This document shows, in pieces, positions 17,116 through 61,943 of a DNA stretch of 64,000 nucleotides. Position 1 is the first letter of the stretch; the number at the start of each line of letters is the position of its first letter. The notes under the pieces were generated by a model. The model was not told the DNA's origin and did not search any database. It saw nothing but the letters and a program-made list of their open reading frames with translations. The position numbers were made by a program, and so were the translations under genes. This stretch comes from an uncultured Gammaproteobacteria bacterium (GTDB lineage: Bacteria > Patescibacteriota > Microgenomatia > UBA12405), in assembly GCA_964538765.1 (NCBI GenBank), contig CAZIHS010000001.1, forward strand, positions 19,966 to 83,965. The letters are read 5' to 3'.

Positions 17116-17139
17116 ATTTGGATAGAATAAAATAGGAAA

Positions 17140-18609: not shown

Positions 18610-19518
18610 GTGGTTTGGTTCTTTCTATTTTTTGTTTTTTGGCATGGTCATGCCATGGCTCAAAGTTCAGTGGCAACTCCATCGGCGGCAACAACAGAAA
18701 CACCCGTTCCGACAACAATACTTCTTAATCCCGCTACTGGAATATATATAAACGAATTTTCTCCGTATGGACTACCCGAATGGGTGGAAATATTTAACAA
18801 TAATGACGTTGCGGCAAAGTTGGAAAACTGGAAAATTAGTGAGGAAGACAATTCAGTCAAAAGTTTTACTGCCGAAATTAACCCCAAGTCATATTATTCG
18901 ATAGATTATTCCGGGTATAAGTTGAACAACGACGGCGATACAGTCAAGGTTATTAACAACCAGGACGCTGTGGTTGACTCACACAGTTTTGGCACATCGA
19001 TCTCAGTTTTACCCTGGTCGAAACAGTTGGGTGGAGAATGGTGCCAAACAGAAGCCAGCCAAAATGCCGCCAACAACACCTGCCCCACTCCACCCCCAAC
19101 ACAGACGCCAACCCTGCCACCAACTCCAACTCTCTCCCCAACTCCAACAACACCCAACTCCCCTACCCCAACCAAAACACCAACCCCCACCCATTCGCCA
19201 ACCCCAACTCATTCGCCGTCCCCAACCAATTCACCAACAGCCAGCAAAACCCCCACTCCCACCAACTCCCAAACACCAACCAAAACACCAACATTAGATC
19301 CAAGTCCAACAATAGATCCTTCTCCCACAATAACAGAAGAGGAAATAGTTGAGACTGATGACAATAAGGTTGGCGAGGTTGCCGGAATCAGCGAGGTATT
19401 GCGGCCAAGCCCAACCGTGGCCGCCAGCAATAAAAACGGTTTTAATTATATACCAGTGGTTTTCATTGCTTTTGGTGGTTTGTTATTATTAATTCCGGTA
19501 ATAACTCAAAAATTATGA
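18610..19518 (+). CDS. Secreted lamin-tail-domain (LTD) protein with Pro/Thr-rich linker and C-terminal TM anchor
   Basis: GTG start. Signal peptide ...HAMA/QS, LTD-like YINEFSPYG...WVEIFN...NDGDTVKV, a (S/T)PTPT repeat tract, and C-terminal [22 protein letters not shown]. Confidence 0.6.
19080..19320 (+). repeat. Degenerate tandem CCAAC(T/C)CC(A/C)AC-type repeats encoding a PTPT/SPTPT linker
   Basis: Direct repeats are visible in the sequence. They produce spurious ORFs in the other frames of both strands. Confidence 0.6.
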
Positions 19519-19889
19519 CGAAAAAATATATCCGTTTTTTACCAGCGGTTATTTGGATGGGAGTAATATATTATTTTTCTGCCAGCACAACCACAGGAGT
19601 GCCACTGACAGGCTGGTGGCGTTTTTTGGTTTTCAAGTCATTTCACCTGATCGAGTATGCAATCCTGGCAGTGCTATTATGGTGGCCACTTGGAAAAACA
19701 ACTCCAACCCTGATGATTTCATATCTATACGCTGTTTTTGATGAAATACACCAAAGGTTTACGGTTGGCCGGGGCAGTAAATTCAGTGATACCATTATCG
19801 ATTTGACAGGAATAGTGGCCGGACTTCTTCTAATAAAATTGGCAAGCGCCATATACCGAAAAATATTTTATAAGGAAAATTACTTTTGA
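19515..19889 (+). CDS. VanZ-like family membrane protein
   Basis: [11 protein letters not shown] ... DEIHQRF...[12 protein letters not shown], matching the conserved VanZ pattern. Confidence 0.6.
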
Positions 19890-20956
19890 AAAGGTTCCAA
19901 ACCGCTATTTTAATAATGAGGCTGTTGACAAAGATAGCCAGGACGTTAATTTTGGTGGCGGCTGGAATTGTGGTGTTGTTTGGCCCACGGAGCGCCAGGG
20001 CCGAGGATGTTTTGGAAAACAGGGCTATTATCTGCAAAAAAAACGAAAAAGGCTGCCGCAAAAACTTTTCTAAACCATTCTGGGTTATAGATAACCTTTA
20101 TCCTGGTTTTATCAGTTATCCGCCAACCACCTTGACAATATCCAACAAGAGAGATGAGAATTGCCGGCTTTACTTTGAGAGCAGAAATATAAAAGGGTCA
20201 GAGGTTTTAGCCAGAAAAATTAACATCAGTGTTACCGGAAATAACCAAATTAAATATGGAGGAAGTTTAGAGGCAGTTAATTTAAAGCCTCATTTTTTGA
20301 CTGATTTACCATCAAGATCAAGGCAGGATCTTTTGTGGACAGTATCGTTAGGACAGGAAGTTGGAAACGAGCTGCAAGGTCAATCTAACGTTTTTGATCT
20401 GGACTTTGATTTTAGCTGTGAGAAAGAAAGTGACGGGCAGGAAGATAAACTTTTAAATACCCAGATTTTGGGGGAAACCAGTGAATCCGGATGCAAGGAC
20501 CTGGCACCGGGGCCACCAACCAAACTCGAGGCTTTTGAAGAGGTAAACCAAATCAGATTGAAATGGCAACCGCCAAAGGATGAGGTGAGTTATTATTTTG
20601 TAAGCTACGGCCTGAAACCCGGAGTAGAAGAGGCCACCAACCCAAACATCGGCAAACAAGCCAATGAGGTGGTGATTGGAAATTTATCAGCAGGAGTTAA
20701 ATATTATTTTAAAGTAGGGGCCGGTAATGGTTGCGCCACGGGCCAAATAAGCTCGGAAATTTTTGCGATTCCAAAGGGTAAGCGGTTACCAAATTCAAAA
20801 CCACCGGGATTTCAGGGGGAAATTCTTGGTAAATCTTTCGCCGGTTTAGATTACGCTGATAACAGACAAGTCGCCAGTAAAAACCGACTGGGATTTATCT
20901 TTTTAACTTTATGGGTTTGCTTTTTTATTTATTGGCGCTTTATACTGAAAAAGTGA
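19886..20956 (+). CDS. Secreted protein with fibronectin type III-like domain and C-terminal TM anchor
   Basis: Signal peptide (ARA/ED), Cys-containing N-domain, FN3-like PGPPTKLEAFEEVNQIRLKWQPP...YYFKVGAGN, C-terminal hydrophobic helix plus RFILKK. Confidence 0.5.
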   Translation: MKRFQTAILIMRLLTKIARTLILVAAGIVVLFGPRSARAEDVLENRAIICKKNEKGCRKNFSKPFWVIDNLYPGFISYPPTTLTISNKRDENCRLYFESRNIKGSEVLARKINISVTGNNQIKYGGSLEAVNLKPHFLTDLPSRSRQDLLWTVSLGQEVGNELQGQSNVFDLDFDFSCEKESDGQEDKLLNTQILGETSESGCKDLAPGPPTKLEAFEEVNQIRLKWQPPKDEVSYYFVSYGLKPGVEEATNPNIGKQANEVVIGNLSAGVKYYFKVGAGNGCATGQISSEIFAIPKGKRLPNSKPPGFQGEILGKSFAGLDYADNRQVASKNRLGFIFLTLWVCFFIYWRFILKK

Positions 20957-21783
20957 ATAGACTGTTTTTATATTTTTTCCCTCATGAAAAGAATAACCAC
21001 CGGGCGGTGGTGATTCAACCCGGTCTTATATTACTTCTAATTTGTCTTCACCTTTTTAGCCAATCTCTTGTAAAGACTATCGGCCTGGCGAGGCCTGGAG
21101 TGTTGGGTTATTCTTCAGAAATTACGGCCGATAAGGTGGTGACCTTAACAAATACGGAACGACAGAAGCTGGGTTTGCCACCACTGATAGCAAATCCCGT
21201 TTTGGCCCAGTCCGCCACTTTAAAGGCCGGTAATATGTTTTCAGACAATTACTGGGCCCATACTTCACCATCCGGAACATCGCCGTGGGAGTTTTTCCGC
21301 CAGGCCGGTTACCAGTATTCAATTGCGGGAGAAAATTTGGCCAAGGATTTTTACGATACCGAATCGATGATGAAGGCCTGGATGAACTCTAAAACCCACC
21401 GCGACAACATAGTTAATCCAAAATACAAAGAGATAGGAATCGGAGTGATGAACGGGACCTTGAACGGGATTAAAACTACCCTGGTAGTGTCACATTTCGG
21501 AACTCCAATTACATCGGTAGTGGAAGAAAAATACAACAATTTAGAGGTGGCCGGGGCCAAAAATGCTGCCGGGGTGGCCGCACCGATGATTAGCCCCCTT
21601 ATGATTACCAAAGCCTTTAGCTTAATGACCTTTTCCCTGGTAATCGGAGTGTTGTTGATAGACTTAGTAGTGACATTTAAACAACCCCAGCACCGGCTTA
21701 AAGGATCGTCGCTGGGTCATGCTTCATTTTTGATTGTAATTTTGCTTTTAGTTTTATATACCAAACAGGGGGCAATTTTTTAA
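20911..21783 (+). CDS. CAP/SCP (YkwD-like) domain protein, membrane-anchored
   Basis: CAP motifs in TNTERQKLGLPPL ... SDNYWAHTSPSG ... GENLAK ... WMNSKTHRDNI. Hydrophobic segments at both ends. Confidence 0.6.
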   Translation: MGLLFYLLALYTEKVNRLFLYFFPHEKNNHRAVVIQPGLILLLICLHLFSQSLVKTIGLARPGVLGYSSEITADKVVTLTNTERQKLGLPPLIANPVLAQSATLKAGNMFSDNYWAHTSPSGTSPWEFFRQAGYQYSIAGENLAKDFYDTESMMKAWMNSKTHRDNIVNPKYKEIGIGVMNGTLNGIKTTLVVSHFGTPITSVVEEKYNNLEVAGAKNAAGVAAPMISPLMITKAFSLMTFSLVIGVLLIDLVVTFKQPQHRLKGSSLGHASFLIVILLLVLYTKQGAIF

Positions 21784-22773: not shown

Positions 22774-23985
22774 ATGGATCAACAAACAAGGACGGCCGTG
22801 ATAGTAATTCCAACCTATAATGAAGCCGACAATATCGGCAAAATGATTGATTATTTGTGCACTAAAACCTTCGCCGACATTAAAAACAAAAAGGCTGTCG
22901 GCTGGAATTGGGAAATGAAAATTCTGATTGTTGATGACAGCTCGCCCGATGGTACGGGGAATGTGGTAAAGGAAAAAATGAGAATTTATCCAAACGAGGT
23001 GTTCTTATTGTCCAGATCTGCCAAAACCGGACTGGGAAGCGCCTATCTTGATGGCTTTAGATATGCCATTGACCGGCTGAATGCCGATTATATTTTTGAA
23101 TTTGACGGTGATTTTCAACACCCACCCGAAACTATTCCTTTAATGCTTGATAGAGCCGAAAAGGGTGACAATTTTGTTATGGGTAGTAGAAAGATAGCCG
23201 GCGGGTCAAATCCTCAAGGCTGGGGGCTGTGGCGGTGGTTGTTAAGCGAGATTGGCGGCGGACTGGCGGCAAGAATTATACTGTTTTTTCCTTTTGGCAA
23301 CTATTGGAAGGTAACTGATCCGACATCAGGACTTAGACTAACCCAGGTAAAAGGCTATATGGACAACCTTGATCTTGACTACACCCACTTAATCAACAGA
23401 AGTTTCGGGTACAAAATTGAAACGCTTTATAAGACATTGGCGCTGAAACCAAAATACAGCGAAATTCCGCTAAAATTTGGTTTGAGAACTGCCGGTATTT
23501 CAAAAATTGAGGCCAAGACCGCAATTGATATTTTGAAAGTGGCGATGCTTCTCAGGGTTAGAGATGAGACGACATTAAAGTTTATTAAGTTTGGTTTGGT
23601 TGGAGGTTTTGGGTTTTTAATAAATCTTTTTGGATTACGTTTTTTGTCAAAGCTAATGGCCGGACTACCGCTTGAAGTTGGGGTGAGAAATTTTGCAGCT
23701 AACGCTTCGGCGGCAGAGGTGTCGATAATCAGCAACTTTATTTTTAATAACAAATGGACCTTTGCGGCAGATAAAATTACCGAGAAAAAACGGTTGGCTC
23801 AAAAATTTACCACTTTTAACTTGTCTTCTATCTTAGGAGGAATTTTAATACCGTCTTTTATTATTGGGTTGGGAACACAAATATGGGGCGATCAAACTAA
23901 AACCCTGTTCTTATTTCTGGCCGTATTTGGCTTTACAATCCCATTCAACTGGTTTGTATACAATAAGTTTATTTGGAAAAAGTAA
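22774..23985 (+). CDS. Family 2 glycosyltransferase (polyprenyl-phosphate sugar transferase-like) fused to a GtrA-like membrane domain
   Basis: GT2 motifs VIVIPTYNE and IVDDSSPDGT, then a C-terminal four-helix GtrA-type region (KFIKFGLVGGFGFLINL ... FNNKWTF). Confidence 0.75.
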   Translation: MDQQTRTAVIVIPTYNEADNIGKMIDYLCTKTFADIKNKKAVGWNWEMKILIVDDSSPDGTGNVVKEKMRIYPNEVFLLSRSAKTGLGSAYLDGFRYAIDRLNADYIFEFDGDFQHPPETIPLMLDRAEKGDNFVMGSRKIAGGSNPQGWGLWRWLLSEIGGGLAARIILFFPFGNYWKVTDPTSGLRLTQVKGYMDNLDLDYTHLINRSFGYKIETLYKTLALKPKYSEIPLKFGLRTAGISKIEAKTAIDILKVAMLLRVRDETTLKFIKFGLVGGFGFLINLFGLRFLSKLMAGLPLEVGVRNFAANASAAEVSIISNFIFNNKWTFAADKITEKKRLAQKFTTFNLSSILGGILIPSFIIGLGTQIWGDQTKTLFLFLAVFGFTIPFNWFVYNKFIWKK

Positions 23986-50705: not shown

Positions 50706-51020
50706 CTACATCTTAACTTCAATGTCGACACCCGAGGGCAAATCGAGATGCTGAAGGCTGTCAACAATACGAAGACTGGAATTATAAATATCGATAAGCC
50801 GCTTGTGGATACGGATCGAATAATGTTCCTGGGCGTTTTTATCGGTGTGGGGACTGGTTAAAACGTTTAGTCGCTTTTTTGAGGTGGGAAGGGGAATAGG
50901 ACCCTGGACTTTGGCTCCAGCGGTAACTGCAGCTTCGACTATTTTTATGGCCGCCTGATCGATAATCCGATGATCAAACGATTTGAGCCGAATCCTGATA
51001 CGGTTACCTTTAGATGTCAT
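50706..51020 (-). CDS. rpsJ: 30S ribosomal protein S10
   Basis: IRIRLKSFDHRIIDQAA. Confidence 0.9.
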   Translation of the reverse strand: MTSKGNRIRIRLKSFDHRIIDQAAIKIVEAAVTAGAKVQGPIPLPTSKKRLNVLTSPHTDKNAQEHYSIRIHKRLIDIYNSSLRIVDSLQHLDLPSGVDIEVKM

Positions 51021-51044: not shown

Positions 51045-52217
51045 TTACTTGATTATTTTGGTGATGACTCCAGCGCCAACTGTTAACCCACCTTCGCGAA
51101 TTGCGAACCGACGACCAGATTCCATAGCCACCGGTTTTATTAATTTAACTGTAACCTTGGCATTATCACCAGGCATTATCATTTCAACGCCGGTTTGCAG
51201 TTCAACTGAACCAGTGACATCGGTGGTGCCGATGAAAACCTGTGGTCGATAACCATTGAAAATTGGGGTGTGTCGGCCTCCTTCTTCTTTTTTAAGTAGA
51301 TATATTTCTGCCTCAAAGTCGGTATGAGGAGTAATGGTGCCCGGTTTGGCAAGAACCTGGCCTCTTTCGATATCTTCCTTTTCAACTCCACGAAGCAAAA
51401 TGCCGACATTGTCACCGGCCTGACCCTGGTCGAGAGTTTTGTGAAACATTTCAACACCAGTAACAACACTCTTTTTGGTTTCTCTAAGACCGACGATTTC
51501 AACTTCTTCATTGACATTGACCTTGCCTCTTTCAATTCGGCCGGTAGCAACTGTACCCCGTCCTTTAATTGAAAAAACGTCCTCGATGGGCATTAAAAAG
51601 GGCTGATCAAGGTCGCGTTTTGGTTCCGGAACAAAATTGTCGAGAGCTTCTACTAGTTTTTTGATTGACTCAACGGCGGCCGGATCCCCTTCCAGGGCTT
51701 TAAGGGCTGAGCCGCGAATAATGGGAGTTTCGTCACCCGGATAATTGTACTTTTTTAAAAGATCACGGATTTCCATCTCAACCAGCTCAAGGAACTCGGG
51801 GTCTTCAACCAGATCCACTTTATTGAGATAGACAACCAAGGCAGGAACATTGACTTGATTGGCCAGAAGAACGTGTTCGCGGGTTTGAGGCATTGGACCA
51901 TCGGGGGCAGAAACAACAAGGATGGCTCCGTCCATTTGAGCGGCGCCTGTGATCATGTTCTTAACGTAGTCGGCGTGACCAGGACAGTCGATATGAGCAT
52001 AGTGACGTTTTTCAGACTCGTATTCGAGATGAGAAATCGCGATGGTAACTATTTTTGAAGCGTCCCTGACAGTTCCCCCTTTTGCAATATCGGCGTATGA
52101 CTTTGGGTTTCCCTGAACTTTGGCGATTGCGGCCGAAAGAGTGGTTTTCCCATGGTCGACGTGACCAATAGTGCCAACATTAATGTGTGGTTTTGTTCTT
52201 TGAAATGTACCAGCCAT
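51045..52217 (-). CDS. tuf: Elongation factor Tu
   Basis: [22 protein letters not shown]. Confidence 0.95.
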
Positions 52218-52312: not shown

Positions 52313-54415
52313 TTATTTAGTTACCGCCGTAGTTAACTCTTCCTGAACGTCTCGAGGAACAGGGTCATAGTGCGATGGTTCCATGTAAAAGTTACCTCGA
52401 CCTTGAGTCAGGCTTCGAAGATCAGTGGCATAACTGTGAAGGTTTGCCAAAGGGACGCTTGATAAAATTTGGGTAAAGCCAAAACTGTCGGTAGTGCCCT
52501 GAATCATGCCCCGGCGGGAAGAGAGATCGCCCATCACCGGCCCCAGAAATTCTGAGGGAGTGTTGACCTCCATTTTCATGATAGGCTCGAGAATTATCGG
52601 CTTGGCCAGAGTAAAGGCGTCTTTAACGGCATAAGAACCGGCCAGTTTGAAAGCCGCTTCGGACGAGTCGACCTCGTGGTAAGTGCCGTCGTAAACCGTG
52701 ACTTTGATATCGGTGGCAGGAAAACCGGCAATGATACCCTTTTGAAGAGTCTCTCTCACACCTTTTTCAATGGCTGGAATAAAATTGGCAGGAATAGCAC
52801 CACCCTTGACACCGTTTACAAACTCAAATCCTTCACCCCGATTTTTTGGTTCAATTTTTAGTTTGCAATGACCATATTGGCCGTGACCGCCAGATTGGTG
52901 AATGTATTTACCTTCCCCCTGTGCAGGCGCAGTGATTGTTTCCCGATAGGCAACCTGGGGAGCGCCAACCTTAACATTTACCCCAAACTCTCTTTTTAGA
53001 CGGTCGACGACTATTTCGAGATAAAGTTCGCCCATGCCCGAAATAATTGTTTGCCCAGTTTCATGGTTATGTGAAACCCGGAAGGTGGGATCTTCGATAG
53101 CCAGGCGGTTTAGGGCTGCTCCCATTTTCTCCTGATCGTCAGAAGTTTGAGGCTCGATTGAGAGAGAGATGACCGGATCGGCAAATTGGATTGGGGAAAG
53201 CGAGAGAAGGGCGTTTTTGTCACATAAGGTATCACCGGTAGTTGATTCTTTTAATCCAATGCAAGCGACAATTTCGCCGGCAAAACCCTCTTCAATACCT
53301 TCTCTTTTGTCAGCGTGCATTAATAGCAGCCGACCAATTCTTTCAGTGGTTTTTTTGGTGGAGTTGTAGACATCGCTTCCAGATTTGAGGGTGCCTGAAT
53401 AAACACGGACATAAGACAAGGTGCCAACGTGAGGGTCGGACTGAACCTTAAAAAGAAGAGCCGACAGAGGTTCTGAATTTTCTGGTTTACGGGTAATTAT
53501 TTCTTGAGTGTTAACATCATAGCCCTCGGTGGGGGGCAGATCGATTGGGGAAGGAAGGTAGTCGACGATGCCGTCGAGAACGGGGTGGATGCCTTTATTC
53601 CGCCAAGCGGCACCGCAGTAAACCGGGAACAGTTTTCGGGCAATAGTGGCTCGACGAAGCGCTGATTTAAGTTCTGGAACCGATATTTCCTGTTCGTTTA
53701 AAAATTTATCCATTAATAAGTCGTCGGTTCCGGCGATTTTTTCAACCATTTGGGCCCGGGCTTTTTGGGCCTCAGACAAATACTGATCACTTACGGGAGA
53801 TACACTAAACTCCATCCCCTGCTCGTCTTTGTCATAAACAACCATTTTCATTTCCATCAGGTCAATGACACCAGTGTGGGCGTGTTCCTGGCCGACAGGA
53901 ATAACAACCGGAACGATTGGGGCCCTAAGTTTGTCAGTGATGCTTTTAAGGGTAAGGGAGAAACTGGCACCAACTTTGTCCATTTTATTAACAAATGCAA
54001 TGCGGGGAACACCATATTTGTCGGCCTGCCGCCAAACGGTTTCCGACTGGGCTTGAACACCGGCGTTACCGTCAAAAATCATAATGGCGCCATCAAGAAC
54101 ACGCAGAGAGCGTTCAACTTCGGCAGTGAAGTCGACATGTCCGGGAGTGTCGATAATATTGAGTCGGTAGTCTTTCCAGTAGGTGGTGATACAGGCTGAC
54201 TGTATTGTTATGCCACGCTCTTTTTCCTGAATCATGCTGTCGGTGGTGGTGGTGCCTTCATCAACCGAGCCGATTTTGTGAATTTTACCGGTATAGAATA
54301 GTATCCGCTCGGTAGTGGTGGTCTTGCCACCATCAATGTGGGCGATTATGCCGATATTGCGGACTTTATCTATCGGGACAATCCGGTTTTTTGTAACTTT
54401 AATTGCGTCAGCCAT
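52313..54415 (-). CDS. fusA: Elongation factor G
   Basis: AHIDGGKTTTTERIL, DTPGHVDF, NKMD, and domains II-V. Confidence 0.95.
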   Translation of the reverse strand: MADAIKVTKNRIVPIDKVRNIGIIAHIDGGKTTTTERILFYTGKIHKIGSVDEGTTTTDSMIQEKERGITIQSACITTYWKDYRLNIIDTPGHVDFTAEVERSLRVLDGAIMIFDGNAGVQAQSETVWRQADKYGVPRIAFVNKMDKVGASFSLTLKSITDKLRAPIVPVVIPVGQEHAHTGVIDLMEMKMVVYDKDEQGMEFSVSPVSDQYLSEAQKARAQMVEKIAGTDDLLMDKFLNEQEISVPELKSALRRATIARKLFPVYCGAAWRNKGIHPVLDGIVDYLPSPIDLPPTEGYDVNTQEIITRKPENSEPLSALLFKVQSDPHVGTLSYVRVYSGTLKSGSDVYNSTKKTTERIGRLLLMHADKREGIEEGFAGEIVACIGLKESTTGDTLCDKNALLSLSPIQFADPVISLSIEPQTSDDQEKMGAALNRLAIEDPTFRVSHNHETGQTIISGMGELYLEIVVDRLKREFGVNVKVGAPQVAYRETITAPAQGEGKYIHQSGGHGQYGHCKLKIEPKNRGEGFEFVNGVKGGAIPANFIPAIEKGVRETLQKGIIAGFPATDIKVTVYDGTYHEVDSSEAAFKLAGSYAVKDAFTLAKPIILEPIMKMEVNTPSEFLGPVMGDLSSRRGMIQGTTDSFGFTQILSSVPLANLHSYATDLRSLTQGRGNFYMEPSHYDPVPRDVQEELTTAVTK

Positions 54416-54521
54416 AGAAATTCTATTTTAATGAAAAAATAACTGTCGGGAACGACAGTTTGTTCTTGATATGTTATCACGAGCAGATTTAGTTAGCCAT
54501 AGGATGAGGTACAATTGAAAG

Positions 54522-55856
54522 ATGGTGACAAGAAAAGAAGTGGGGATTATCGGTGGAGGAATTACAGGACTGGTTGCAGCCTATAGGCTGAGTCAAAAGG
54601 GTTATAAAGTAACAGTGCTGGAAAAAAGTATGGATTTGGGCGGGTTGGCGGGAGGTTTTAAACTGGGAGGAGAGAGTATAGAAAAGGCGTATCACCATAT
54701 TTTTCAAACAGACAAAGACATTATCAAATTGACCGATGAGCTGGGTTTGGCTGATAAGCTGGAGTGGAAAAAAGGTTCGATTGGGATGTTTGTCAACAGT
54801 AAGTTGTGGCCCTTTATGACACCGAAGGACCTGCTTAATTTTAGTCCATTGGGTTTTTTTGACAAATTAAGGTTAGGATTGATAAAGATTTTGCTCGAAA
54901 ATGATAAAGGCTGGGAAAAGTATGTTGGAGTCAGGGCCGGCAGCTGGATGCGAAAATGGGGTGGAGAAAAAAATTACCGGATTGTTTGGGAACCGTTGTT
55001 AAGAGGTAAGTTTCACCATTATCACGAAAATGTGTCGATGGCTTGGCTGTGGGCCAGAATTCACACCCGGGGTAATTCAAAAGCCAAAGGCGAAACTGAA
55101 GAAAAACTGGGGTATTATCGGGGTGGATTTCAAGTACTAGTTGATGAACTGGCCAAAAGAATCAAAGAAAATAAAGGTGATATTATCACCGGAGTCGCGG
55201 TTCAAAAAATATCAAGAAGAAACGATAAGAAGCTGGTGGTGGAATGGAAAGAGAAAAACAAATATGACTGTAAAAATGTTTTTGATAGTGTTGTCGCAGC
55301 GGTTCCTTCTGATGTTTTGGCTTCTTTTTTAAAAGGGGAATCAGAGCTTGATGGTGAGGTTTTAGAATTTACTAGAATGTTAAGATCAATCGACTATTTG
55401 GGCTCAATTGTGGTGGTGTTCTCTACAAACCAATCATTAAGCCGGTTATATTGGCATAACGTTAATGACGTTAACTCTCCATTTTTGGCTTTTATCCAAC
55501 ACACAAACTTGATTGGAAACGAAAGATATGGTGGAAAACATGTTTATTATATGGGAAATTATTTACCGCACGATCACCGGTATTTTGGTGAGTCGGATGA
55601 GAAGATTTATAAGGAATTTTTCGGATATCTAAAAAAACTCTTCCCTCAATTTGAGCCCAGTAAGGTTTTGGAAAAATACCTTTTTAGACTAAACCGGTCC
55701 CAGCATGTGGTTGATACAAACTATATAAACAGAATTCCAGGTTATAAAACGCCGATAGATGGGCTTTTTTTGGCAAACTTTTCGCAAATTTTTCCGGAAG
55801 ATAGAGGGACTAACTTTGCGGTCCGCGAGGGTGAGAAAGTGGCCAAGATGATTTGA
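54522..55856 (+). CDS. FAD-dependent oxidoreductase (amine oxidase / protoporphyrinogen oxidase / phytoene desaturase-like fold)
   Basis: N-terminal dinucleotide-binding motif IIGGGITGLVAAYRL...VTVLEKSMDLGGLAGG. Substrate not inferable from the sequence. Confidence 0.65.
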   Translation: MVTRKEVGIIGGGITGLVAAYRLSQKGYKVTVLEKSMDLGGLAGGFKLGGESIEKAYHHIFQTDKDIIKLTDELGLADKLEWKKGSIGMFVNSKLWPFMTPKDLLNFSPLGFFDKLRLGLIKILLENDKGWEKYVGVRAGSWMRKWGGEKNYRIVWEPLLRGKFHHYHENVSMAWLWARIHTRGNSKAKGETEEKLGYYRGGFQVLVDELAKRIKENKGDIITGVAVQKISRRNDKKLVVEWKEKNKYDCKNVFDSVVAAVPSDVLASFLKGESELDGEVLEFTRMLRSIDYLGSIVVVFSTNQSLSRLYWHNVNDVNSPFLAFIQHTNLIGNERYGGKHVYYMGNYLPHDHRYFGESDEKIYKEFFGYLKKLFPQFEPSKVLEKYLFRLNRSQHVVDTNYINRIPGYKTPIDGLFLANFSQIFPEDRGTNFAVREGEKVAKMI

Positions 55857-55858
55857 AA

Positions 55859-57250
55859 CTATTCGTCGGTGGTTGTTTCTGCCGAGGTGGGTGTTGATTT
55901 AGGGCTGGGGATGGCTTTTTCGGAAGAAGCCGAGCTTAGGTCGACCCCAATAACGAAAACAACGTCATAGGGAGAGCTGCTTTTAAGGGTTTCTTCAACG
56001 GTGGCATCAAATTTGGGGGAAAGTGAACTTTCAAAATAGCGGCCATATTTTTCAGTCATGCCGGTTTTAACCCGGATGGTGTTTGAGGTAGCTTTTTCGG
56101 GACTATTGCCAACGGCGATGCTTTTGAAACCCAGCTTTAATATTATTTCTTTAAGAGTGGCTGCCTGACCGTTTATGTCGGTTGCATTTAAGACCTGTAA
56201 TTTAAGGTCTTTGCTGATGTCGGCCAAGGTTGGAACTGGAGTTTCAGTGGGGCTGATTTCAACCACTTCGGTTGGAGTCAGGTTCTCTTCGCCGCCAGGA
56301 GTTTCTAGATTGGCGGCAGAGTTGCGATTTAATACAAACCAGATAATGATTGAGGCGAGGGCGGCGGTAAAAATAAAAACAGCGACGATTGGGAGAACGT
56401 TTCTTTTTGGTTCCATTTTGGGAGGAGATAAATTATTAGTTGTTGGTTTAATTATATCAGAGGGTTTTAGAAAAGTTGCCAACACCGGTAATGGAATGTC
56501 GCTGGTCTTACCCGCTCTGGCTGATAAATCGCCTTCGTTGAAGGTCGAAACGGCCAGGTTGTTTTGACTGGAAACACGATGGGGAAAGTTCTCGGGCATA
56601 AACAAACGGTTGACTGATTGGCCAAAATATTGTTTGGAAAAATTAACGTTTTTTTGAATGTCTATTTTTGAGCTCTTCAATACCTGGCTGAGGTAGACGA
56701 CATTATTGTTGGCTAAGACCAGAAGCGAACTTTGTTTGTTTAGAGGGTAAAGCAGGAAATATTGACCCGAAGTGGATAAAGAGAAGGAGTTAATGCAGGC
56801 CTGGGACAAAGGAATTAGATTGAGAGGAAGCTGACTTATCTGGCTAAAATTGCTTTTTAGAATATCAATTGTTTTTTGGTCGTATATTACCGTTTTAATT
56901 AATAGTTTGCCGTCTTGGCTAATGAGATTAAAGTCCACATAGTCGGGAACTACATCAAAAGGGCAAAGCGGGCGGGAAAGGTCGGCCACAAATTTTTGAC
57001 TGACAGTTTCGGGTGAGTCCTCGTAGATAAATGAGCGGCAAAAAACCGCATCATCGGGGACGATAACGTCGATTGATTTTGGCTTGAGGTCTTTAAAAAG
57101 ATTAGCGAGAGTTTCGAGGTCTTTTTGGGTTTTTTTCTCCCAAAGACTTAAGTCCAGGGTAATAAGATAGTTGCTTTTTCGATTGACAAAGATGTCGAGA
57201 CGGTCGGGCTTTGGCCAAAAGGTGGCTTTGGATGGTGAAGAAAATAGCAT
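55859..57250 (-). CDS. Membrane protein: PilM-like (actin-like) N-terminal domain, one TM helix, C-terminal LytR_C domain
   Basis: N-terminal pattern resembling PilM (IDVIVPDDAVFCRSF...PFDVVPDYVDFNLIS), TM helix VLPIVAVFIFTAALASIIIWFVL, and C-terminal LytR_C-like LKLQVLNATDINGQAATLKEIILKLGF...YDVVFVIGVD. Confidence 0.45.
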   Translation of the reverse strand: MLFSSPSKATFWPKPDRLDIFVNRKSNYLITLDLSLWEKKTQKDLETLANLFKDLKPKSIDVIVPDDAVFCRSFIYEDSPETVSQKFVADLSRPLCPFDVVPDYVDFNLISQDGKLLIKTVIYDQKTIDILKSNFSQISQLPLNLIPLSQACINSFSLSTSGQYFLLYPLNKQSSLLVLANNNVVYLSQVLKSSKIDIQKNVNFSKQYFGQSVNRLFMPENFPHRVSSQNNLAVSTFNEGDLSARAGKTSDIPLPVLATFLKPSDIIKPTTNNLSPPKMEPKRNVLPIVAVFIFTAALASIIIWFVLNRNSAANLETPGGEENLTPTEVVEISPTETPVPTLADISKDLKLQVLNATDINGQAATLKEIILKLGFKSIAVGNSPEKATSNTIRVKTGMTEKYGRYFESSLSPKFDATVEETLKSSSPYDVVFVIGVDLSSASSEKAIPSPKSTPTSAETTTDE

Positions 57251-57277
57251 CAGTATTAGTAGTATGAGAAAAATCGC

Positions 57278-57763
57278 TTACCAACGCAAGTGGGCAAAGG
57301 CTTTGTTGGCTTCGGCCATTTTTTCAACTTCCATACGCTTAGCAACTGCCGAGCCTTCGTTTTTGTAGGCGGAGACAATTTCCGAGGCTAATTTTTCGGC
57401 AAAAGTGTGAAACTGTTTGCTGGGTTTTAGCCGTGATGAAGTGATCAGCCAACGAAGAGCCAAGGCGTTTTGGCGATGATAGCGGACAGCGGTTGGAACC
57501 TGATAGACAGCGCCGCCAATACGCCGGGGCCTAACCTCGACCTTTGGACGAATATTACTAAGAGCAATATCAAAAATCGCGAGAGGATCTTCCTGTCCAC
57601 CAATTTCTTTTTTGGCGATTTGCAAAGCATTATAGACTTGCTTCTCGGCGGCAGATTTCTTGCCGTCTTTCATAGCTGAGTTTATTAATTTGGTGACAAC
57701 GGGACTTTGATGAACAAAATCGGGAGGGGTAATTTTGATTTTTGCTTGTCCTTTGCGGGCCAT
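57278..57763 (-). CDS. rpsG: 30S ribosomal protein S7
   Basis: Conserved S7 blocks (PKVEVRPRRIGGAVYQVP). Confidence 0.9.
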   Translation of the reverse strand: MARKGQAKIKITPPDFVHQSPVVTKLINSAMKDGKKSAAEKQVYNALQIAKKEIGGQEDPLAIFDIALSNIRPKVEVRPRRIGGAVYQVPTAVRYHRQNALALRWLITSSRLKPSKQFHTFAEKLASEIVSAYKNEGSAVAKRMEVEKMAEANKAFAHLRW

Positions 57764-57778
57764 GGTTAGAAGTGATTA

Positions 57779-58201
57779 TTAATTTGTAGATTTGGCCGGA
57801 CGTTTGGTGCCATATTTGCTTCGAGACTGGCCCCGACCGTTAACGCCGGAAGCGTCGTACTTGCCTCTTACTACATGGTAGCGGATTCCCGGAAGGTCAC
57901 GAACACGTCCGCCGCGAATGCTGACGATGCCGTGTTCGGCCAGATTGTGGCCGATGCCGGGAATGTAGGCGGTTACTAAAGTGCGGTTACTCAATTTAAT
58001 TTTTGCGACTTTTCTTAAAGCTGAATGCGGTTTTTTGGGAGTCATGGTCTTGACAACAGTAACCACTCCTTTTTTAAAGGGGTTAAAGCTTTTAATAACC
58101 GTATTTTTAATACTGTTAAAGTTATTGCGAAGGGCGGCCACCTTTAGTTTTTTACTGGGTTTGACCCGACCTGTTTTAATAAGCTGGTTAAATGTGGGCA
58201 T
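57779..58201 (-). CDS. rpsL: 30S ribosomal protein S12
   Basis: MPTFNQLIK ... [11 protein letters not shown] ... [10 protein letters not shown]. Confidence 0.95.
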
Positions 58202-58208
58202 AAATTAT

Positions 58209-61200
58209 TTAGATCAAGGGCTGATTCTTGCCGACAGGAATAAGACGTCCGATAATAACATTTTCCTTCAGACCGATCAAGTTATCGACTTCGGCCAGCA
58301 AAGAGGCTTCAGTAAGGACACTGGTAGTTTGTTGGAAAGAAGCGGCTGAAAGCCACGAGCCAGTACTTAAAGCTGATTGAATTAGACCTAGTAGGACTTT
58401 TTTGGCTTTTGCCGGTTTGCCTTTGTTTTTAACTGCCTTTTCGTTTTCGCCATCAAAAACTGCCTGGGTAACAATTTGACCATAGAGGAAGTTGGTGTCA
58501 CCAGGATCTTCTATTTTGTATTTGTCACTCATTTCCTTAACAATTACTTCAAGGTGTTTGTCGTGGATGGCTATGCCCTGGGATTCATAAACAGCCTGAA
58601 TGCTATTTATGAGATATCTTTGAGCGGCCTCGATGCCTTTGACTTCAAGAACCTGGCGAACGTCGAGAGAGCCAGAGGTAAGTTGAGTGCCCTGGACTAC
58701 AAGGTCGCCGTCGCTGACCATGAGGGTTGAACTGGCGGGAAGAAGGTAAGTGACGGTTTTGGTGACATTATCTTTATCCTTTCCTGATAGCTTGATTTCG
58801 TAGCCGTCAGTGGTTTCTTTGACCTTAACTTTTCCACTTAACTCGGCAATTGGTGAGGGCAGCTTTGGCATTCTAATCTCGAATAATTCCTGTACACGAG
58901 GCAACCCCTGGGTAACGTCGACTCCAATTACTCCGCCGGTGTGTTTGGTGCGCAGAGTTAGTTGAGTGCCGGGTTCCCCGATGGATTGTGCAGCAACAAC
59001 TCCAACAGGAACACCAATTTGAACGAGTTTACGATTGGAAAGATCCCAGCCATAACAGTGACGACAAAGTCCACTTTTGGCTTGGCAGGTTAGAGGAGAT
59101 CTGATGTTTACCGATTCGACCTTACTTGAATCTATTATGGCAGCAATGGCGCTGTCGATAATATCGCCTTTTAATGCAATTTTTTGGTTTGTTTCCGGAT
59201 CAACAAGGTCGGAAGCAAGAATCCGGCCCAAAATGCGTCTTGAAAAATATCGTTCGCGGTTTTTGTCGTTGCGTTCAATCGTTAAAAACTTTTTAGTGCC
59301 ACATTCGTCTTGACGGATTATCGAGACATGAGCAGCATCAACCAAACGGCGAGTTAAATAACCGGCGTCGGCAGTTTTTAGGGCAGTGTCGGCTAAACCT
59401 TTTCGGGTGCCTCTGGCGCCAGTAACATACTCAAAAACAGATAAACCTTCGCGGAAGTTTGATTTAGTTGGCAGTTGGACAATCTTGCCGGTGGGATCAA
59501 CCATTAGTCCCCGCATACCTGAAAGCTGTTTGATCTGGTCTTTTGAGGCTCTTTTAATGCCGGCGGCGGAAACGATACGAATGGGGGTATCAATGTCAAG
59601 GGTTGACCAGGTTTTTTCGGCTATTTCTTCAGTTATCTCCATCCAAACCGTTTGGCTCAATCGCTTTTTTTCCTCATTACTGATAAGACCCATCTTAAAG
59701 TTTTCTTCGATTTGGGAAACACGCTTGTTGGCCTCGGAAATAATCGAGTCCTTTTGGGGTAAATAGCCGCAATCGGCCATAGACAAGGACAGGCCGGAAA
59801 TGGTGAAGCCTTCAAATCCGATACTCTTTAGAGAATCGATCAGCTTTACAGTGCAGTTGGTGCCGGAAACTTTCATGGCTTTAACAACAAGATCGTTTAC
59901 CGCCTTGCTACCAGCCATGGGTTCGTTGACATAATCAAATTCTTTTGGAAGGACAGAGTTAAACCAAATCCGACCGTAGGTGGTTTTGATTAACTTCCCG
60001 CCGATTCGAACCGCAACCAACTGGCGAAGCTCTATTTTTCCTGTTTGATAGGCCAATATCACTTCTTTTTCATCGGCTAAAATGGGAAGCCCTGCGAAGC
60101 TTGGGTCGGCTTCTTTGGAAAGGTCCTGGGATCTGATCGAAGTGATGTAGTAGCAACCTACAGCCATTTCCTGGGCAGGAACCGAAATAGGGCTGCCATC
60201 GGCCGGTTTGAGCAGGTTTCTCGAAGGTAACATAAGTTTTTTAGCTTCTTTTTGGGCAGCATCGGACAGTGGCAAATGAACTCCCATTTGGTCGCCGTCA
60301 AAGTCAGCGTTGAAACCCTTGCAAACGCAGGGGTGGAGCCTGATGGCCAAACCGTCTACTAATATTGGTCTGAAGGCCTGAATGGAAAGTTTGTGAAGGG
60401 TTGGCGCCCGGTTCAAAAGAACGTAACTTTTGCTGGTAATTTGTTCTAAAATGTCGTAAACCTCATTGACACGATGGTCAATCAGGTTTTTGGCGCTTTT
60501 GATGTTGGCGGCCAAACCGGTGGTAATGAGATCGCGCAAAACAAAGGGGCGGTATATTTCTAGGGCAATTTCCTTTGGCAGTCCTACCTGATTGAGCTTG
60601 AGGTCAGGTCCAACCACGATAACCGACCGGCCCGAATAGTCGACTCTTTTCCCAAGAAGGTTGCGTCTAAACCGGCCTTTCTTGCCTTTAAGAAGATCGG
60701 AAAGCGAACGGGGAGTTCTTTTTAAACTTTTACGTTTGTTTTTTAAACTTTTTTGTGAATCGATCAGGTTATCCACCGATTCCTGAAGCATTCTTTTTTC
60801 GTTTTTGAGAATGATTTCGGGGGCGGATAACTTGAGAAGCTTTTTTAACCGATTATTACGGTTGATGAGTCTTCGATAGAGATCGTTAAGATCAGAGGTA
60901 GCAAAGCGCCCGCCGGTTAGTTGAACCATGGGGCGAAGGTCGGGGGGGACAACCGGAACTTTGTCCAAAACCATCCAGGCCGGGTTGATATTGTTGCTGA
61001 CCATGCCGTTAATAATCCTGATTTTATACATGATTTTCTTCTTTTTAAGTTTGCTGCTGGTTTTTTGAAGTTCGAGTTTAAGATTTTTAACAGTGGCCGG
61101 AAAATCGAGTTGTTTTAGAACATCTAGCAGGGCTTCGGCCCCCATTTTTGCCGTAAAAAATATATCGGCTTTAAACTGGGAAAGGTAAAAACTTTCTTCG

Positions 61201-61943
61201 TCGGTAATAGTAGACAGAATTCCGACGTTGCTTACCTTTTCGGTGAGATATTTGGTCAGGCTTTCAATCCGATTTCTTTCGGAAAGAGCCTTATTTTCTA
61301 GTCGTTGAATTTCTTGTTTTAGCCGCACCTCTCTTTCCTCAATCGCAATTTGAAGCTGATCCTTGCTCTTGATTCTTTTAACAAGAAGCTTCTTTTCGGC
61401 CTCGGTTTCCTTTATTTTTGGTTCAATGGATTTTTTGGTGTCGGTTTCTATCTGCTCAAGTCTTTTTTTGGAATATGTTTTCAGGTTTTCAAGGGCTTCG
61501 TTTCTTTTTGAGTCGGTGACAGAGGTTACAAGATATTTTGTAAAATAAACAATGGCCTCCAAATCTTTTTGGGGAATGTCCAGAATGATTGATAGAGGAG
61601 ACGGGGTGTTTCGGAGATACCAGAGATGGACAATGGGGGCGGCTAAACTGATATGACCCATTCTCTCCCGCCGAACCTTGGAGGTGGTTACTTCAACGCC
61701 ACAACGGTCACAGGTAACTCCTTTAAAACGGATTTTTTTGTATTTTCCACAGTAACACTCATAGTCCCGGCTTGGACCAAATATCTTTTCGCAAAAGAGA
61801 CCGTCTTTTTCGGGCCGCCAACTGCGGTAATTAATTGTTTCCGGTTTGGTGACTTCGCCCTTGGACCAGGAAAGAATTGTTTCCGGAGAAGCCAATTTTA
61901 TTTGGAGGCCGGTGAAGTCGGTGAGACTTTTGAATTGGTTCAT
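58209..61943 (-). CDS. rpoC: DNA-directed RNA polymerase subunit beta'
   Basis: Zn-binding CxxC...CxxC N-terminus and catalytic NADFDGDQM motif. Confidence 0.95.
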   Translation of the reverse strand: MNQFKSLTDFTGLQIKLASPETILSWSKGEVTKPETINYRSWRPEKDGLFCEKIFGPSRDYECYCGKYKKIRFKGVTCDRCGVEVTTSKVRRERMGHISLAAPIVHLWYLRNTPSPLSIILDIPQKDLEAIVYFTKYLVTSVTDSKRNEALENLKTYSKKRLEQIETDTKKSIEPKIKETEAEKKLLVKRIKSKDQLQIAIEEREVRLKQEIQRLENKALSERNRIESLTKYLTEKVSNVGILSTITDEESFYLSQFKADIFFTAKMGAEALLDVLKQLDFPATVKNLKLELQKTSSKLKKKKIMYKIRIINGMVSNNINPAWMVLDKVPVVPPDLRPMVQLTGGRFATSDLNDLYRRLINRNNRLKKLLKLSAPEIILKNEKRMLQESVDNLIDSQKSLKNKRKSLKRTPRSLSDLLKGKKGRFRRNLLGKRVDYSGRSVIVVGPDLKLNQVGLPKEIALEIYRPFVLRDLITTGLAANIKSAKNLIDHRVNEVYDILEQITSKSYVLLNRAPTLHKLSIQAFRPILVDGLAIRLHPCVCKGFNADFDGDQMGVHLPLSDAAQKEAKKLMLPSRNLLKPADGSPISVPAQEMAVGCYYITSIRSQDLSKEADPSFAGLPILADEKEVILAYQTGKIELRQLVAVRIGGKLIKTTYGRIWFNSVLPKEFDYVNEPMAGSKAVNDLVVKAMKVSGTNCTVKLIDSLKSIGFEGFTISGLSLSMADCGYLPQKDSIISEANKRVSQIEENFKMGLISNEEKKRLSQTVWMEITEEIAEKTWSTLDIDTPIRIVSAAGIKRASKDQIKQLSGMRGLMVDPTGKIVQLPTKSNFREGLSVFEYVTGARGTRKGLADTALKTADAGYLTRRLVDAAHVSIIRQDECGTKKFLTIERNDKNRERYFSRRILGRILASDLVDPETNQKIALKGDIIDSAIAAIIDSSKVESVNIRSPLTCQAKSGLCRHCYGWDLSNRKLVQIGVPVGVVAAQSIGEPGTQLTLRTKHTGGVIGVDVTQGLPRVQELFEIRMPKLPSPIAELSGKVKVKETTDGYEIKLSGKDKDNVTKTVTYLLPASSTLMVSDGDLVVQGTQLTSGSLDVRQVLEVKGIEAAQRYLINSIQAVYESQGIAIHDKHLEVIVKEMSDKYKIEDPGDTNFLYGQIVTQAVFDGENEKAVKNKGKPAKAKKVLLGLIQSALSTGSWLSAASFQQTTSVLTEASLLAEVDNLIGLKENVIIGRLIPVGKNQPLI

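Follow-up and report, generated by a model that had tools for sequence, protein, structure and literature searches.

The window, namely the whole stretch of 64,000 nucleotides analysed here, carries the ribosomal str cluster on its minus strand, where it follows rpoB and rpoC. The order rpsL-rpsG-fusA-tuf is among the most conserved gene orders of bacteria and is usually unbroken. In the window, the order and strand of these genes are kept, but the four are not contiguous: rpsG and fusA are 2.9 kb apart, with two genes between them, one of which lies on the opposite strand. The initial annotation had placed two non-ribosomal genes in this gap, and a check of the open reading frames and of the flanking genes against Pfam confirmed both, with their positions and strands. 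The genes of the locus are the following:

57779..58201, minus strand: rpsL, ribosomal protein S12 (Pfam Ribosom_S12_S23, E 6e-30), preceding rpsG in every related locus
57278..57763, minus strand: rpsG, ribosomal protein S7 (Pfam Ribosomal_S7, E 1e-49)
55859..57250, minus strand: ORF463, a gene for a 463-residue protein directly after rpsG (open reading frame; Pfam LytR_C)
54522..55856, plus strand: FADox, a 444-residue FAD-dependent oxidoreductase (Pfam Amino_oxidase; NCBIfam PRK07233, NF005560)
52313..54415, minus strand: fusA, EF-G (Pfam EF-G domains)
51045..52217, minus strand: tuf, after fusA (Pfam)
50706..51020, minus strand: rpsJ, after tuf (Pfam)

The five genes rpsL, rpsG, fusA, tuf and rpsJ all share the minus strand. 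ORF463 and FADox are convergent, tail-to-tail, with stop codons only 2 nt apart, and FADox is head-to-head with fusA.

Among Shapirobacteria-like CPR bacteria, some 80 genomes at the species level have an ORF463 homologue after rpsG; their common order is rpoC-rpsL-rpsG-ORF463 ... FADox(-)-fusA, and FADox occupies the same fusA-adjoining slot in at least 53 related loci. The spacer between rpsG and ORF463 is at most 145 nt long in 74 of the 83 loci, and an insert of 176-3481 nt separates the two genes in 9 loci. In the distant lineage L089, the arrangement consists of rpsG, the ORF463 homologue and fusA only, all co-directional and without FADox. The variable length of the ORF463-to-FADox slot (0 to 7 kb among the loci) and the unusual GC skew across 54.5-57.5 kb might be taken as signs of an assembly chimera, or of a recent strain-specific insertion without functional meaning. 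However, sister genomes show the same placement in some 80 species-level assemblies that are independent and come from many studies, which rules out a chimera. Moreover, the window protein shares 32-44% identity with the other members of the ORF463 family, and their folds are predicted with confidence, which points to long purifying selection on the family. The chance that the arrangement is an artefact or a recent insertion is thus negligible, and the interrupted rpsG-fusA gap, with its two real and conserved genes, is fixed across a whole CPR clade, Candidatus Shapirobacteria together with close Microgenomates.

The ORF463 product consists of two folded domains, a single transmembrane helix and two disordered segments, encoded as follows:

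56456..57250, minus strand: residues 1-265, predicted cytoplasmic actin-fold domain of the PilM/GspL/FtsA type, with an SHS2-like insertion (residues ~69-138)
56477..56503, minus strand: residues 250-258, SDIPLPVLA motif (family consensus SNLPLPVLG)
56330..56398, minus strand: residues 285-307, single transmembrane helix, from sequence (helix 286-309 in the model)
56207..56323, minus strand: residues 310-348, disordered extracytoplasmic linker rich in Pro, Thr and Glu (pLDDT <50 for 312-340; composition)
55943..56206, minus strand: residues 349-436, LytR_C domain, with a beta-alpha-beta-beta-alpha-beta-beta order
55859..55942, minus strand: residues 437-463 and the stop codon, disordered tail rich in Ser, Thr and Pro (pLDDT <50; composition)

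The AlphaFold2 model of ORF463 has a pLDDT of 81 overall, and mostly >90 in both domains. The hydrophobic transmembrane helix (VLPIVAVFIFTAALASIIIWFVL) is preceded by Lys/Arg residues in the segment PKMEPKRN, which by the positive-inside rule orients it N-in/C-out. Structural similarity search using Foldseek found PilM and GspL as the best matches of the N-terminal domain, with the highest target-normalised TM-scores (0.54-0.59) for the cytoplasmic domains of EpsL/GspL and lower scores for FtsA. The domain possesses subdomains 1A, 1C (SHS2) and 2A of the PilM-type actin-like fold, and appears to be devoid of subdomain 2B, judging by its length and secondary-structure order. Altogether, the model shows ORF463 as a bitopic membrane protein with an N-terminal domain of the PilM/GspL/FtsA actin-fold subtype on the inner side. 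Structure prediction and profiles thus bear out the initial domain reading (a PilM-like actin fold, one transmembrane helix and LytR_C), including the actin-like fold at the N-terminus.

At the sequence level, the N-terminal domain stands nearly alone. No Pfam or NCBIfam family matched it at thresholds relaxed to E 1; the PilM_2 HMM (PF11104) found no match at this threshold in the window protein or any of 48 family members, nor did the T2SSL/GspL_C HMMs match ORF463 or these 48 members, and sequence and profile searches of the PDB with ORF463 returned LytR_C entries only. Faint matches to PAP_PilO (R64 PilO) were seen in 2 of the 48 members (E 0.006). A profile of the N-terminal domain retrieved 37 proteins among 1.84e9 (1.84 billion) sequences, a clade-restricted family whose sole outgroup match is a PilM_2 protein of Kerfeldbacteria (P0273); hhalign aligned the two with a probability of 94.7% over 181 columns. 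Neither a DxG nor a Gly-rich phosphate-binding motif is conserved in the domain: within residues 1-270 only Gly193 and Gly258 reach 70% conservation, neither in a DxG context, and the strand that aligns with the phosphate-2 region of PilM reads YFLLYPLN. Judging from these motifs, the domain would have lost ATP binding. By contrast, an NLPLP-type motif 27 residues before the transmembrane helix is conserved across the family, with Pro253 invariant and Asn251, Pro255 and Val256 at least 90% conserved. The family consensus SNLPLPVLG seems to resemble, over a short stretch, the PilM-binding N-terminus of PilN, represented by PilN(1-12) in PDB 5eou (MARINLLPWREE). Our literature search found nothing on the INLLP motif.

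The C-terminal domain matches Pfam LytR_C (PF13399) over residues 349-410, scoring 28.6 bits (cut-off 22.2), and a LytR_C match is present in all 48 family members (best E 2e-10). It shares the fold of the solved LytR_C domain of Rv2700 (PDB 6q10). The NCBIfam model Cei (NF035953) matches weakly over the transmembrane helix and the start of LytR_C, at 23.7 bits, far from the equivalog cut-off of 150 bits. The catalytic LCP domain (LytR_cpsA_psr) has no Pfam match in ORF463 or any family member. The ectodomain of ORF463 is thus an extracytoplasmic LytR_C of the Cei/VirR type, placed behind a Pro/Thr linker. In Mycobacterium tuberculosis, VirR and Cei maintain wall integrity, and VirR binds Lcp1 via contacts between LytR_C domains (bioRxiv 10.1101/2023.11.19.567727); the function of LytR_C is otherwise called "yet unknown" (PMC11481543).

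Comparison with known systems showed that ORF463 shares its layout with GspL/EpsL of type II secretion: a PilM-type cytoplasmic actin fold of ~230-265 residues that need not bind nucleotide, one transmembrane helix and an extracytoplasmic alpha/beta domain. However, the ectodomain is LytR_C instead of ferredoxin-like, no T2SSL/GspL_C sequence match exists, gspE/F/M neighbours are absent, with no gsp genes in the flanks of the ORF463 loci, and the host is a CPR bacterium. ORF463 also resembles the PilM-PilN pair of type IVa pili (PDB 2ych and 5eou). A PilM_2 protein is its sole distant relative by sequence, its NLPLP motif followed by the transmembrane helix mirrors the INLLP N-terminus of PilN, and the engineered PilM:PilN(1-12) fusion in 5eou has the same order. 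It differs from the pair in being one polypeptide rather than two, in lacking a PilM_2 HMM match and nucleotide-binding motifs, in carrying LytR_C in place of the periplasmic domain of PilN, and in never lying in a pil locus. Cei (Rv2700) and VirR (Rv0431) have a similar membrane-anchored extracytoplasmic LytR_C, but only a short cytoplasmic stub where ORF463 has a 265-residue actin-fold domain; phylum and envelope differ as well.

FADox has a Pfam Amino_oxidase match (E 1e-31). Its score with NCBIfam PRK07233 is 456.8 bits, where the cut-off is 252, and residues 6-444 cover positions 2-428 of the 435-position profile. It carries the FAD Rossmann motif, and its AlphaFold2 model (pLDDT 94.7) matches protoporphyrinogen oxidase (PPOX, 2ivd; E 1e-27) and phytoene desaturase (PDS, 5mog; TM-score 0.83). 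It is thus, as first annotated, a flavoprotein of the amine-oxidase/PPOX/CrtI type; the initial description of it as divergent does not hold for its sequence, since homologues are 46-57% identical over several CPR phyla. Although the fold is common to protoporphyrinogen oxidase and plant-type phytoene desaturase (TM-score ~0.8), FADox falls below all three equivalog cut-offs (TIGR00562, 58.7 vs 97.85; HpnE, 84.2 vs 283; crtI_fam, 41.2 vs 238). Pathways for haem and carotenoids are, to our knowledge, generally missing from CPR bacteria. Assignment as UDP-galactopyranose mutase was rejected, with no GLF domain found and PPOX and PDS as the top folds. The literature search returned nothing on PRK07233.

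Outside Shapirobacteria, the FADox family has glycosyltransferase neighbours in all five CPR loci examined, with GT2 in four and GtrA in three: two loci (L087 and L088) read GT2-GtrA-FADox-(DUF2142/SDR), and the others read GT2-FADox-GT1 (L086), GT2-FADox-GtrA (L091) and FADox-GT1 (L092). The Shapirobacteria copy has lost its GT2/GtrA neighbours; a GT2-GtrA fusion elsewhere in the window (22774-23985), considered as the missing partner, gave only a weak 58-residue match and is not their orthologue. In mycobacteria, the genes for GtrA (Rv3789), DprE1 and DprE2 form a module in this order. The CPR association of FADox with GT2, GtrA and sometimes an SDR recalls such a flavoprotein-SDR pair, acting on a polyprenyl-phospho-sugar beside a GtrA-like protein. 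As the fold of DprE1 differs (VAO-type), the resemblance is one of gene context. FADox probably acts by modifying either a lipid-linked sugar or the polyprenyl that carries it.

The initial annotation had missed both these glycosyltransferase neighbours and the dTDP-rhamnose genes (rmlA/B/C/D) that lie between the ORF463 homologue and FADox in most relatives. Within this gap, 48 loci carry rmlB-like genes, 35 carry rmlC and 5 carry rmlA; almost all of these genes share the strand of ORF463, one rmlA copy being opposite. Neither the window, where ORF463 and FADox abut, nor L089 has rml genes, and they are also absent in 5 other loci. Genes for a type IV pilus, an LCP protein or a polymer exporter were found neither among the 30 window ORFs scanned nor in flanks of 8 kb around the related loci. 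With the rhamnose link taken from gene neighbourhood, the rpsG-fusA gap may represent a small cell-envelope glycan islet.

Two further features of the minus strand bear on how the locus might be transcribed:

57251..57277, minus strand: rpsG-ORF463 spacer of 27 nt, in which the terminator scan found none; contains a -10-like CATACT
54441..54460, minus strand: terminator-like hairpin AACTGTCG-TTCC-CGACAGTT followed by ATTTTTTCA, in the divergent FADox-fusA spacer, ending ~25 nt before the fusA ATG

The CATACT hexamer (57266-57261) lies 10 nt before the ORF463 ATG and 17 nt after a -35-like TTGCGT (57289-57284) within the last rpsG codons. Among the related loci, 45 of 83, in addition to the window, have a -10-like [CT]ATA[CA]T 2-13 nt upstream of the start codon, and within 2-10 nt in every case but one, compared to only 1.7% of random windows; it often reads TGnTATACT, right after a terminator. 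These promoters and terminators were called by matching a consensus in related, non-independent sequences, and the hexamer suggests that ORF463 has a promoter of its own. In 35 of 53 related loci, the 100 nt upstream of fusA hold an equivalent hairpin with its T-run, compared to none of 79 for rpsL, 2 of 83 for rpsG and none of 16 for rpsJ. An Rfam search recognised no leader before either fusA or ORF463; its one find in the window was a tRNA.

It had been proposed that ORF463 is co-transcribed with the ribosomal protein genes; if the rpoBC-rpsLG (str) transcript included it as an integral cistron, this would couple an envelope factor to growth-rate-controlled expression. The position is indeed kept across a deep clade, the L089 homologue is co-directional between rpsG and fusA, and the terminator-free 27-nt spacer makes read-through possible in the window; in 35 loci the spacer is at most 40 nt long, with a terminator-like hairpin in only one of them. 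However, a strong intrinsic terminator directly follows rpsG in 31 of 75 relatives, the -10-like hexamers precede the ATG in more than half of the loci, inserts part the two genes in nine loci, and the downstream FADox is convergent, so the ORF463 transcription unit cannot run on into fusA. The claimed co-transcription and tie to growth rate are therefore not supported in the form proposed, and an integral str cistron seems unlikely. It is the position that is conserved, not demonstrably the transcript. The str cluster would be split into units: ORF463 probably uses its own short-leader promoter, with possible read-through from rpsG in this genome, and transcription of fusA-tuf-rpsJ would restart behind the terminator-like hairpin.

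As to function, we propose, at about even odds, that ORF463 is a non-enzymatic transmembrane scaffold within the putative glycan islet, built like GspL, itself a PilM-PilN fusion. Its pseudo-ATPase domain would recruit a putative cytoplasmic partner, and its LytR_C ectodomain would contact the cell wall or LCP-type glycopolymer-ligation machinery. The islet would comprise ORF463, followed in most relatives by same-strand rmlA/B/C/D, and the convergent FADox. A machine-bound role is also conceivable, in which ORF463 is the functional PilM-PilN/GspL equivalent that anchors the traffic ATPase of a type IV pilus or related filament in monoderm-like CPR cells, with LytR_C replacing the ferredoxin-like ectodomain of PilN/GspL to fix the machine to the wall. 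PilM-PilN has been described as the orthologue of GspL, which anchors a traffic ATPase (PMC4471445) and whose domain type can do without ATP binding. The leading structural matches, the PilM_2 outgroup, the PilN-like motif at a PilN-like spacing from the helix and the faint PAP_PilO matches all fit this role. Nevertheless, we hold it to be rather improbable: the ~80 loci are flanked by rpoBC, rpsLG, rml, FADox and fusA-tuf, never by a pilMNO(PQ)/pilBC neighbourhood or pilin-type genes, no pil genes occur among the window ORFs scanned, no PilO/GspM-like partner gene lies nearby, and no role of LytR_C in pilus systems is known.

A third reading takes ORF463 as an FtsA-like divisome or elongasome anchor, whose tethered actin fold links cytoskeletal proteins to wall synthesis. 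ORF463 does lie among housekeeping genes, and in Streptomyces the LCP-LytR_C ligase CglA influences where FtsZ rings are positioned (PMC11481543). Compared to FtsA, however, ORF463 is shorter (~265 residues in the domain), has a transmembrane instead of a C-terminal amphipathic helix, lacks conserved ATP motifs and apparently subdomain 2B, and has no ftsZ or dcw neighbourhood in any locus, in addition to the better scores of PilM and GspL; this reading is very unlikely. Returning to the scaffold, a bolder version of it is rather improbable: ORF463 would be a natural PilM-PilN fusion with its outer half swapped for LytR_C, a new class of transmembrane coupler and a Shapirobacteria core gene, linking a cytoplasmic ATPase or cytoskeletal partner directly to the ligation of wall glycopolymer (rhamnose polymer). 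It would have been fixed in the str cluster first, as in L089, and the rml genes and the lipid-linked-sugar flavoenzyme recruited later.

The pairing of a PilM/GspL scaffold fold, known from pilus and secretion machines, with LytR_C, a domain of ligases for wall glycopolymers, was not found reported in the literature searched, where queries linking LytR_C with PilM, LytR_C with actin-like proteins, or Shapirobacteria with LytR returned nothing. ORF463 offers a second, independent context for the study of LytR_C. The PRK07233 family, widespread in CPR bacteria, is a candidate for a new step in lipid-linked sugar chemistry. The locus further indicates that the str cluster can split into separate transcription units while staying undispersed, and its interruption, fixed long ago and clade-wide, provides Shapirobacteria-like CPR lineages with a useful synapomorphy. 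Should the scaffold reading hold, ORF463 would provide a concrete handle on envelope assembly in ultra-small, uncultivated CPR cells.

The ORF list places two genes between rpsG and fusA, at 54522..55856 (+) and 55859..57250 (-), in agreement with the initial annotation. The genes around this gap are arranged as listed below.

Gene order at the rpsG-fusA gap in the window
rpoB, minus strand, cut by the window end
58209-61943, minus strand, rpoC
57779-58201, minus strand, rpsL (Pfam S12)
57278-57763, minus strand, rpsG (Pfam S7)
55859..57250, minus strand, ORF463 (463 aa; ORF list)
54522..55856, plus strand, flavoprotein gene (444 aa; ORF list)
52313-54415, minus strand, fusA (Pfam EF-G)
51045-52217, minus strand, tuf (Pfam EF-Tu)
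after tuf, minus strand, rpsJ (Pfam S10), then rplC, rplD and onward

The ATG of ORF463 lies 27 nt after the rpsG stop. ORF463 and the flavoprotein gene are tail-to-tail with 2 nt separating their stops, and the starts of the flavoprotein gene and fusA are head-to-head with 106 nt between them. On the plus strand, GC skew ranges from +0.2 to +0.46 over both inserted genes (54500-57500), as against about 0 to +0.17 in the majority of flanking windows of 500 nt; thus the coding strand of the flavoprotein gene is G-rich and that of ORF463 is C-rich.

The sole Pfam match of ORF463 is LytR_C (28.6 bits against a cut-off of 22.2, residues 349-410), in addition to a far sub-threshold NCBIfam match to Cei. 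LytR_C is present in all 48 aligned family members, and residues 1-270 match no Pfam family in any of the 48. The AlphaFold2 model, based on the alignment of 48 homologues, has high confidence in its two globular parts.

Segments of ORF463 in the AlphaFold2 model
residues 1-265, globular N-domain, mostly pLDDT >90
residues 286-309, helix
residues 312-340, disordered Pro/Thr/Glu linker
residues 349-436, beta-alpha-beta-beta-alpha-beta-beta domain
after residue 436, disordered Ser/Thr/Pro tail

LytR_C is extracytoplasmic in Cei and LCP proteins; based on this location and the K/R residues preceding the helix, ORF463 is predicted to have an N-in, C-out topology.

Structural comparison using Foldseek gave the highest target-normalised TM-scores (0.54-0.59) for the cytoplasmic domains of EpsL/GspL, which are equal in size to the N-domain of ORF463. 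The model and the Foldseek results therefore bear out the PilM-like actin fold that had been assigned to the N-terminus from the sequence alone. In the family alignment, two Gly columns of residues 1-270 are conserved at 70% or more, neither of which is in a DxG context, and the N-domain is likely a pseudo-ATPase. The conserved motifs of the family are PDDxxxTKSFxYD, DIQKxxNYSxLYF and SNLPLPVLG. The last one, at residues 250-258 (SDIPLPVLA in the window), is 27 residues before the TM helix and resembles the PilM-binding N-terminus of PilN, MARINLLPWREE, as taken from the engineered PilM:PilN(1-12) fusion (PDB 5eou). This PilN-like motif suggests that ORF463 may be a natural PilM-PilN fusion, as GspL is regarded to be (PMC4471445). 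An N-domain profile scored against 1.84 billion representative proteins (E up to 1e-3) retrieved only 37 proteins, about 23 of which are full length (436-525 aa). The sole outgroup among them is P0273 of Kerfeldbacteria, which matches Pfam PilM_2 at 59.7 bits, and this indirect sequence bridge to PilM has an hhalign probability of 94.7% over 181 columns.

Protein search returned at least 136 full-length homologues of ORF463, with identities of 37-44%; those with names are annotated as "LytR C-terminal domain-containing protein" of Candidatus Shapirobacteria or Woesebacteria. A synteny scan that took a single genome for each GTDB species yielded 80 loci, essentially all of which keep the order rpoC-rpsL-rpsG-ORF463 by tblastn mapping; wherever the contig extends far enough, fusA-tuf-rpsJ is immediately preceded by the flavoprotein gene in opposite orientation. 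The spacer from rpsG to ORF463 does not exceed 145 nt in 74 of 83 loci and is most often 24-27 nt long. The initial annotation had allowed that the placement might be an assembly chimera, an explanation removed by the recurrence over 80 loci, and the probability that the arrangement is an artefact is negligible.

P0258 (525 aa), the most diverged member of the family, is encoded at L089:8001-9943 (GCA_030613565.1), where rpoC is 64% identical. It has a long Lys/Glu-rich cytoplasmic linker, and the gene order is rpsG-homologue-fusA-tuf, with the flavoprotein and rml genes absent. This arrangement is possibly the ancestral state. In the simplest history, ORF463 would have been the first gene to enter the rpsG-fusA gap, with the others joining it afterwards. 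The 365-nt spacer before fusA at this locus contains a small hydrophobic ORF-like stretch.

The interval between ORF463 and the flavoprotein gene varies from about 0 to 7 kb among the related loci, and is short in the window and five other loci. Its usual content is rmlB-like genes (48 loci), rmlC (35) and a second, RmlD-type SDR gene, with rmlA in some cases and NUDIX or unknown genes interspersed; almost without exception, the rml genes share the strand of ORF463. As this island is missing from the window, the genome either is without dTDP-rhamnose genes or has them elsewhere.

The flavoprotein belongs over its full length to NCBIfam PRK07233 (456.8 bits versus 252), and scores far under the equivalog cut-offs of PPOX, HpnE and CrtI. 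In superposition, its model (pLDDT 94.7) reaches a TM-score of about 0.8 with protoporphyrinogen oxidase and with plant phytoene desaturase. Homologues of 46-57% identity are found across CPR, including Dojkabacteria, Saccharibacteria and Kerfeldbacteria, and in genomes of these types the gene is away from fusA. The neighbourhoods at five such loci are as follows.

Gene order around the flavoprotein gene (FADox) in other CPR lineages
L087, GT2-GtrA-FADox-DUF2142
L088, GT2-GtrA-FADox-SDR-GT2
L086, GT2-FADox-GT1
L091, GT2-FADox-GtrA
L092, FADox-GT1

The flavoprotein gene is beside a glycosyltransferase gene at all five loci, adjacent to GT2 at four and to GtrA at three; DUF2142, SDR or GT1 genes are also in the vicinity. 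GT2 together with GtrA is the established signature of polyprenyl-phosphate-sugar systems (Gtr/Arn-type modules). From this context we tentatively infer that the flavoprotein modifies a lipid-linked sugar or its carrier. The PRK07233 neighbourhood looks like a CPR-wide, uncharacterised module of lipid-linked sugar chemistry, and the rpsG-fusA gap, with rml, LytR_C and flavoprotein genes, reads as a cell-envelope glycan islet. The window also has a single gene encoding a GT2 glycosyltransferase fused to a GtrA/DPMS transmembrane domain (22774-23985, +), which is not orthologous to the GT2 and GtrA genes flanking the flavoprotein gene elsewhere in CPR.

The transcription signals were assessed at the consensus level, and since the loci are related, their counts do not represent independent events. 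In the window, a -35-like TTGCGT lies within the final rpsG codons (57289-57284, -), followed after 17 nt by a -10-like CATACT (57266-57261, -), 10 nt before the ORF463 ATG; the scan found no terminator between the two genes. Short-spacer loci repeat this layout, while the remainder of the spacer varies. In 45 of 83 loci, the distance from the end of a [CT]ATA[CA]T hexamer to the ORF463 start downstream is 2-13 nt (2-10 in all but one); the hexamer occurs in 1.7% of random windows of 22 nt and in 0-6% of cases ahead of rpsL, rpsG, fusA, tuf and rpsJ. Its position implies a putative leaderless or very short-leader mRNA, and neither ORF463 nor fusA has an obvious Shine-Dalgarno sequence. ORF463 probably has a short-leader promoter of its own, as judged from these signals.

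A strong intrinsic terminator composed of an A-tract, a GC-rich stem and a T-tract is directly 3' of rpsG in 31 of 75 relatives (e.g. L003, L010, L015, L017 and L033; AAAACGCCCC-loop-GGGGCGTTTT, often followed by TGTTATACT), whereas it is missing from the window and other short-spacer genomes; the wiring of the rpsG-ORF463 junction therefore differs within the clade. Moreover, a hairpin with a T-run is within 100 nt upstream of fusA in 35 of 53 loci, versus 0 of 79 for rpsL and 2 of 83 for rpsG. Its stem varies by locus (GCTGTTGC..GCAACGGT, AAAGCGGG..CCCGTTT, GTCCC..GGGAC), and no Rfam family matches at this site. In the window it is the following feature.

54441-54460, minus strand, terminator-like hairpin with stem AACTGTCG..CGACAGTT, ending about 25 nt before the fusA ATG

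This hairpin might be a terminator that overlaps the fusA promoter and serves as insulation, or else a leader or attenuator for the fusA-tuf-S10 unit. Altogether, the str cluster would be divided into separate transcription units. Read-through from rpsG into ORF463 may occur in this genome and would be blocked or attenuated in many relatives; the initial proposal that ORF463 is an integral cistron of the ribosomal transcript is doubtful, at about one chance in four, and applies to this genome only.

The rest of the window has ordinary small-genome housekeeping content, including Obg, YchF, the CCA-adding enzyme, RecJ, aspS/lysS-type and gltX synthetases, TrmD, pyruvate kinase, RNase Y, RecA and the S10/spc/alpha ribosomal clusters, with no pilus genes among the ORFs scanned. 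A 461-aa ORF without a Pfam family (16045-17430, -) shares about 290 nt with the beginning of the oppositely oriented gltX (17140-18606, +); it either starts further downstream than called or is not a real gene. Probable surface or secreted proteins (Lamin-tail-domain, VanZ-like, fn3-domain and CAP-domain) are encoded in a row at 18610-21783 (+), and a 216-aa ORF without a family adjoins the gene (5875-6408, -) for a protein of 177 aa that carries an RRM_1 RNA-recognition motif of eukaryote type.

As the best-supported reading we propose, with about even confidence, that ORF463 is a non-enzymatic GspL-like TM scaffold, the LytR_C ectodomain of which would contact the wall or LCP-type ligation machinery, while the cytoplasmic pseudo-actin domain would recruit a putative partner. 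The LytR_C solo proteins VirR and Cei of M. tuberculosis keep up wall integrity, and LytR_C-LytR_C contacts join VirR to Lcp1 (bioRxiv 10.1101/2023.11.19.567727); the function of LytR_C is otherwise called "yet unknown" (PMC11481543). A genuine subunit of a pilus or secretion platform would fit the fold of ORF463; however, the gene is in no pil neighbourhood, and we consider this role unlikely. An FtsA-like division anchor is more improbable still.

The component folds were already known, as was the NCBI name of the protein, which comes from its LytR_C domain, and the literature search found no paper tying LytR_C to PilM or actin-like proteins. Within the sources searched, three findings are new: a PilM/GspL-type domain is recognised in the protein, this domain is combined with a TM helix and LytR_C in one architecture, and the gene is fixed clade-wide in the str cluster together with rml genes and a flavoprotein whose other neighbourhoods are of glycosyltransferase/GtrA type. 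The comparative-genomics result is solid and mildly surprising, and the mechanism is a testable proposal for organisms that are hard to culture.
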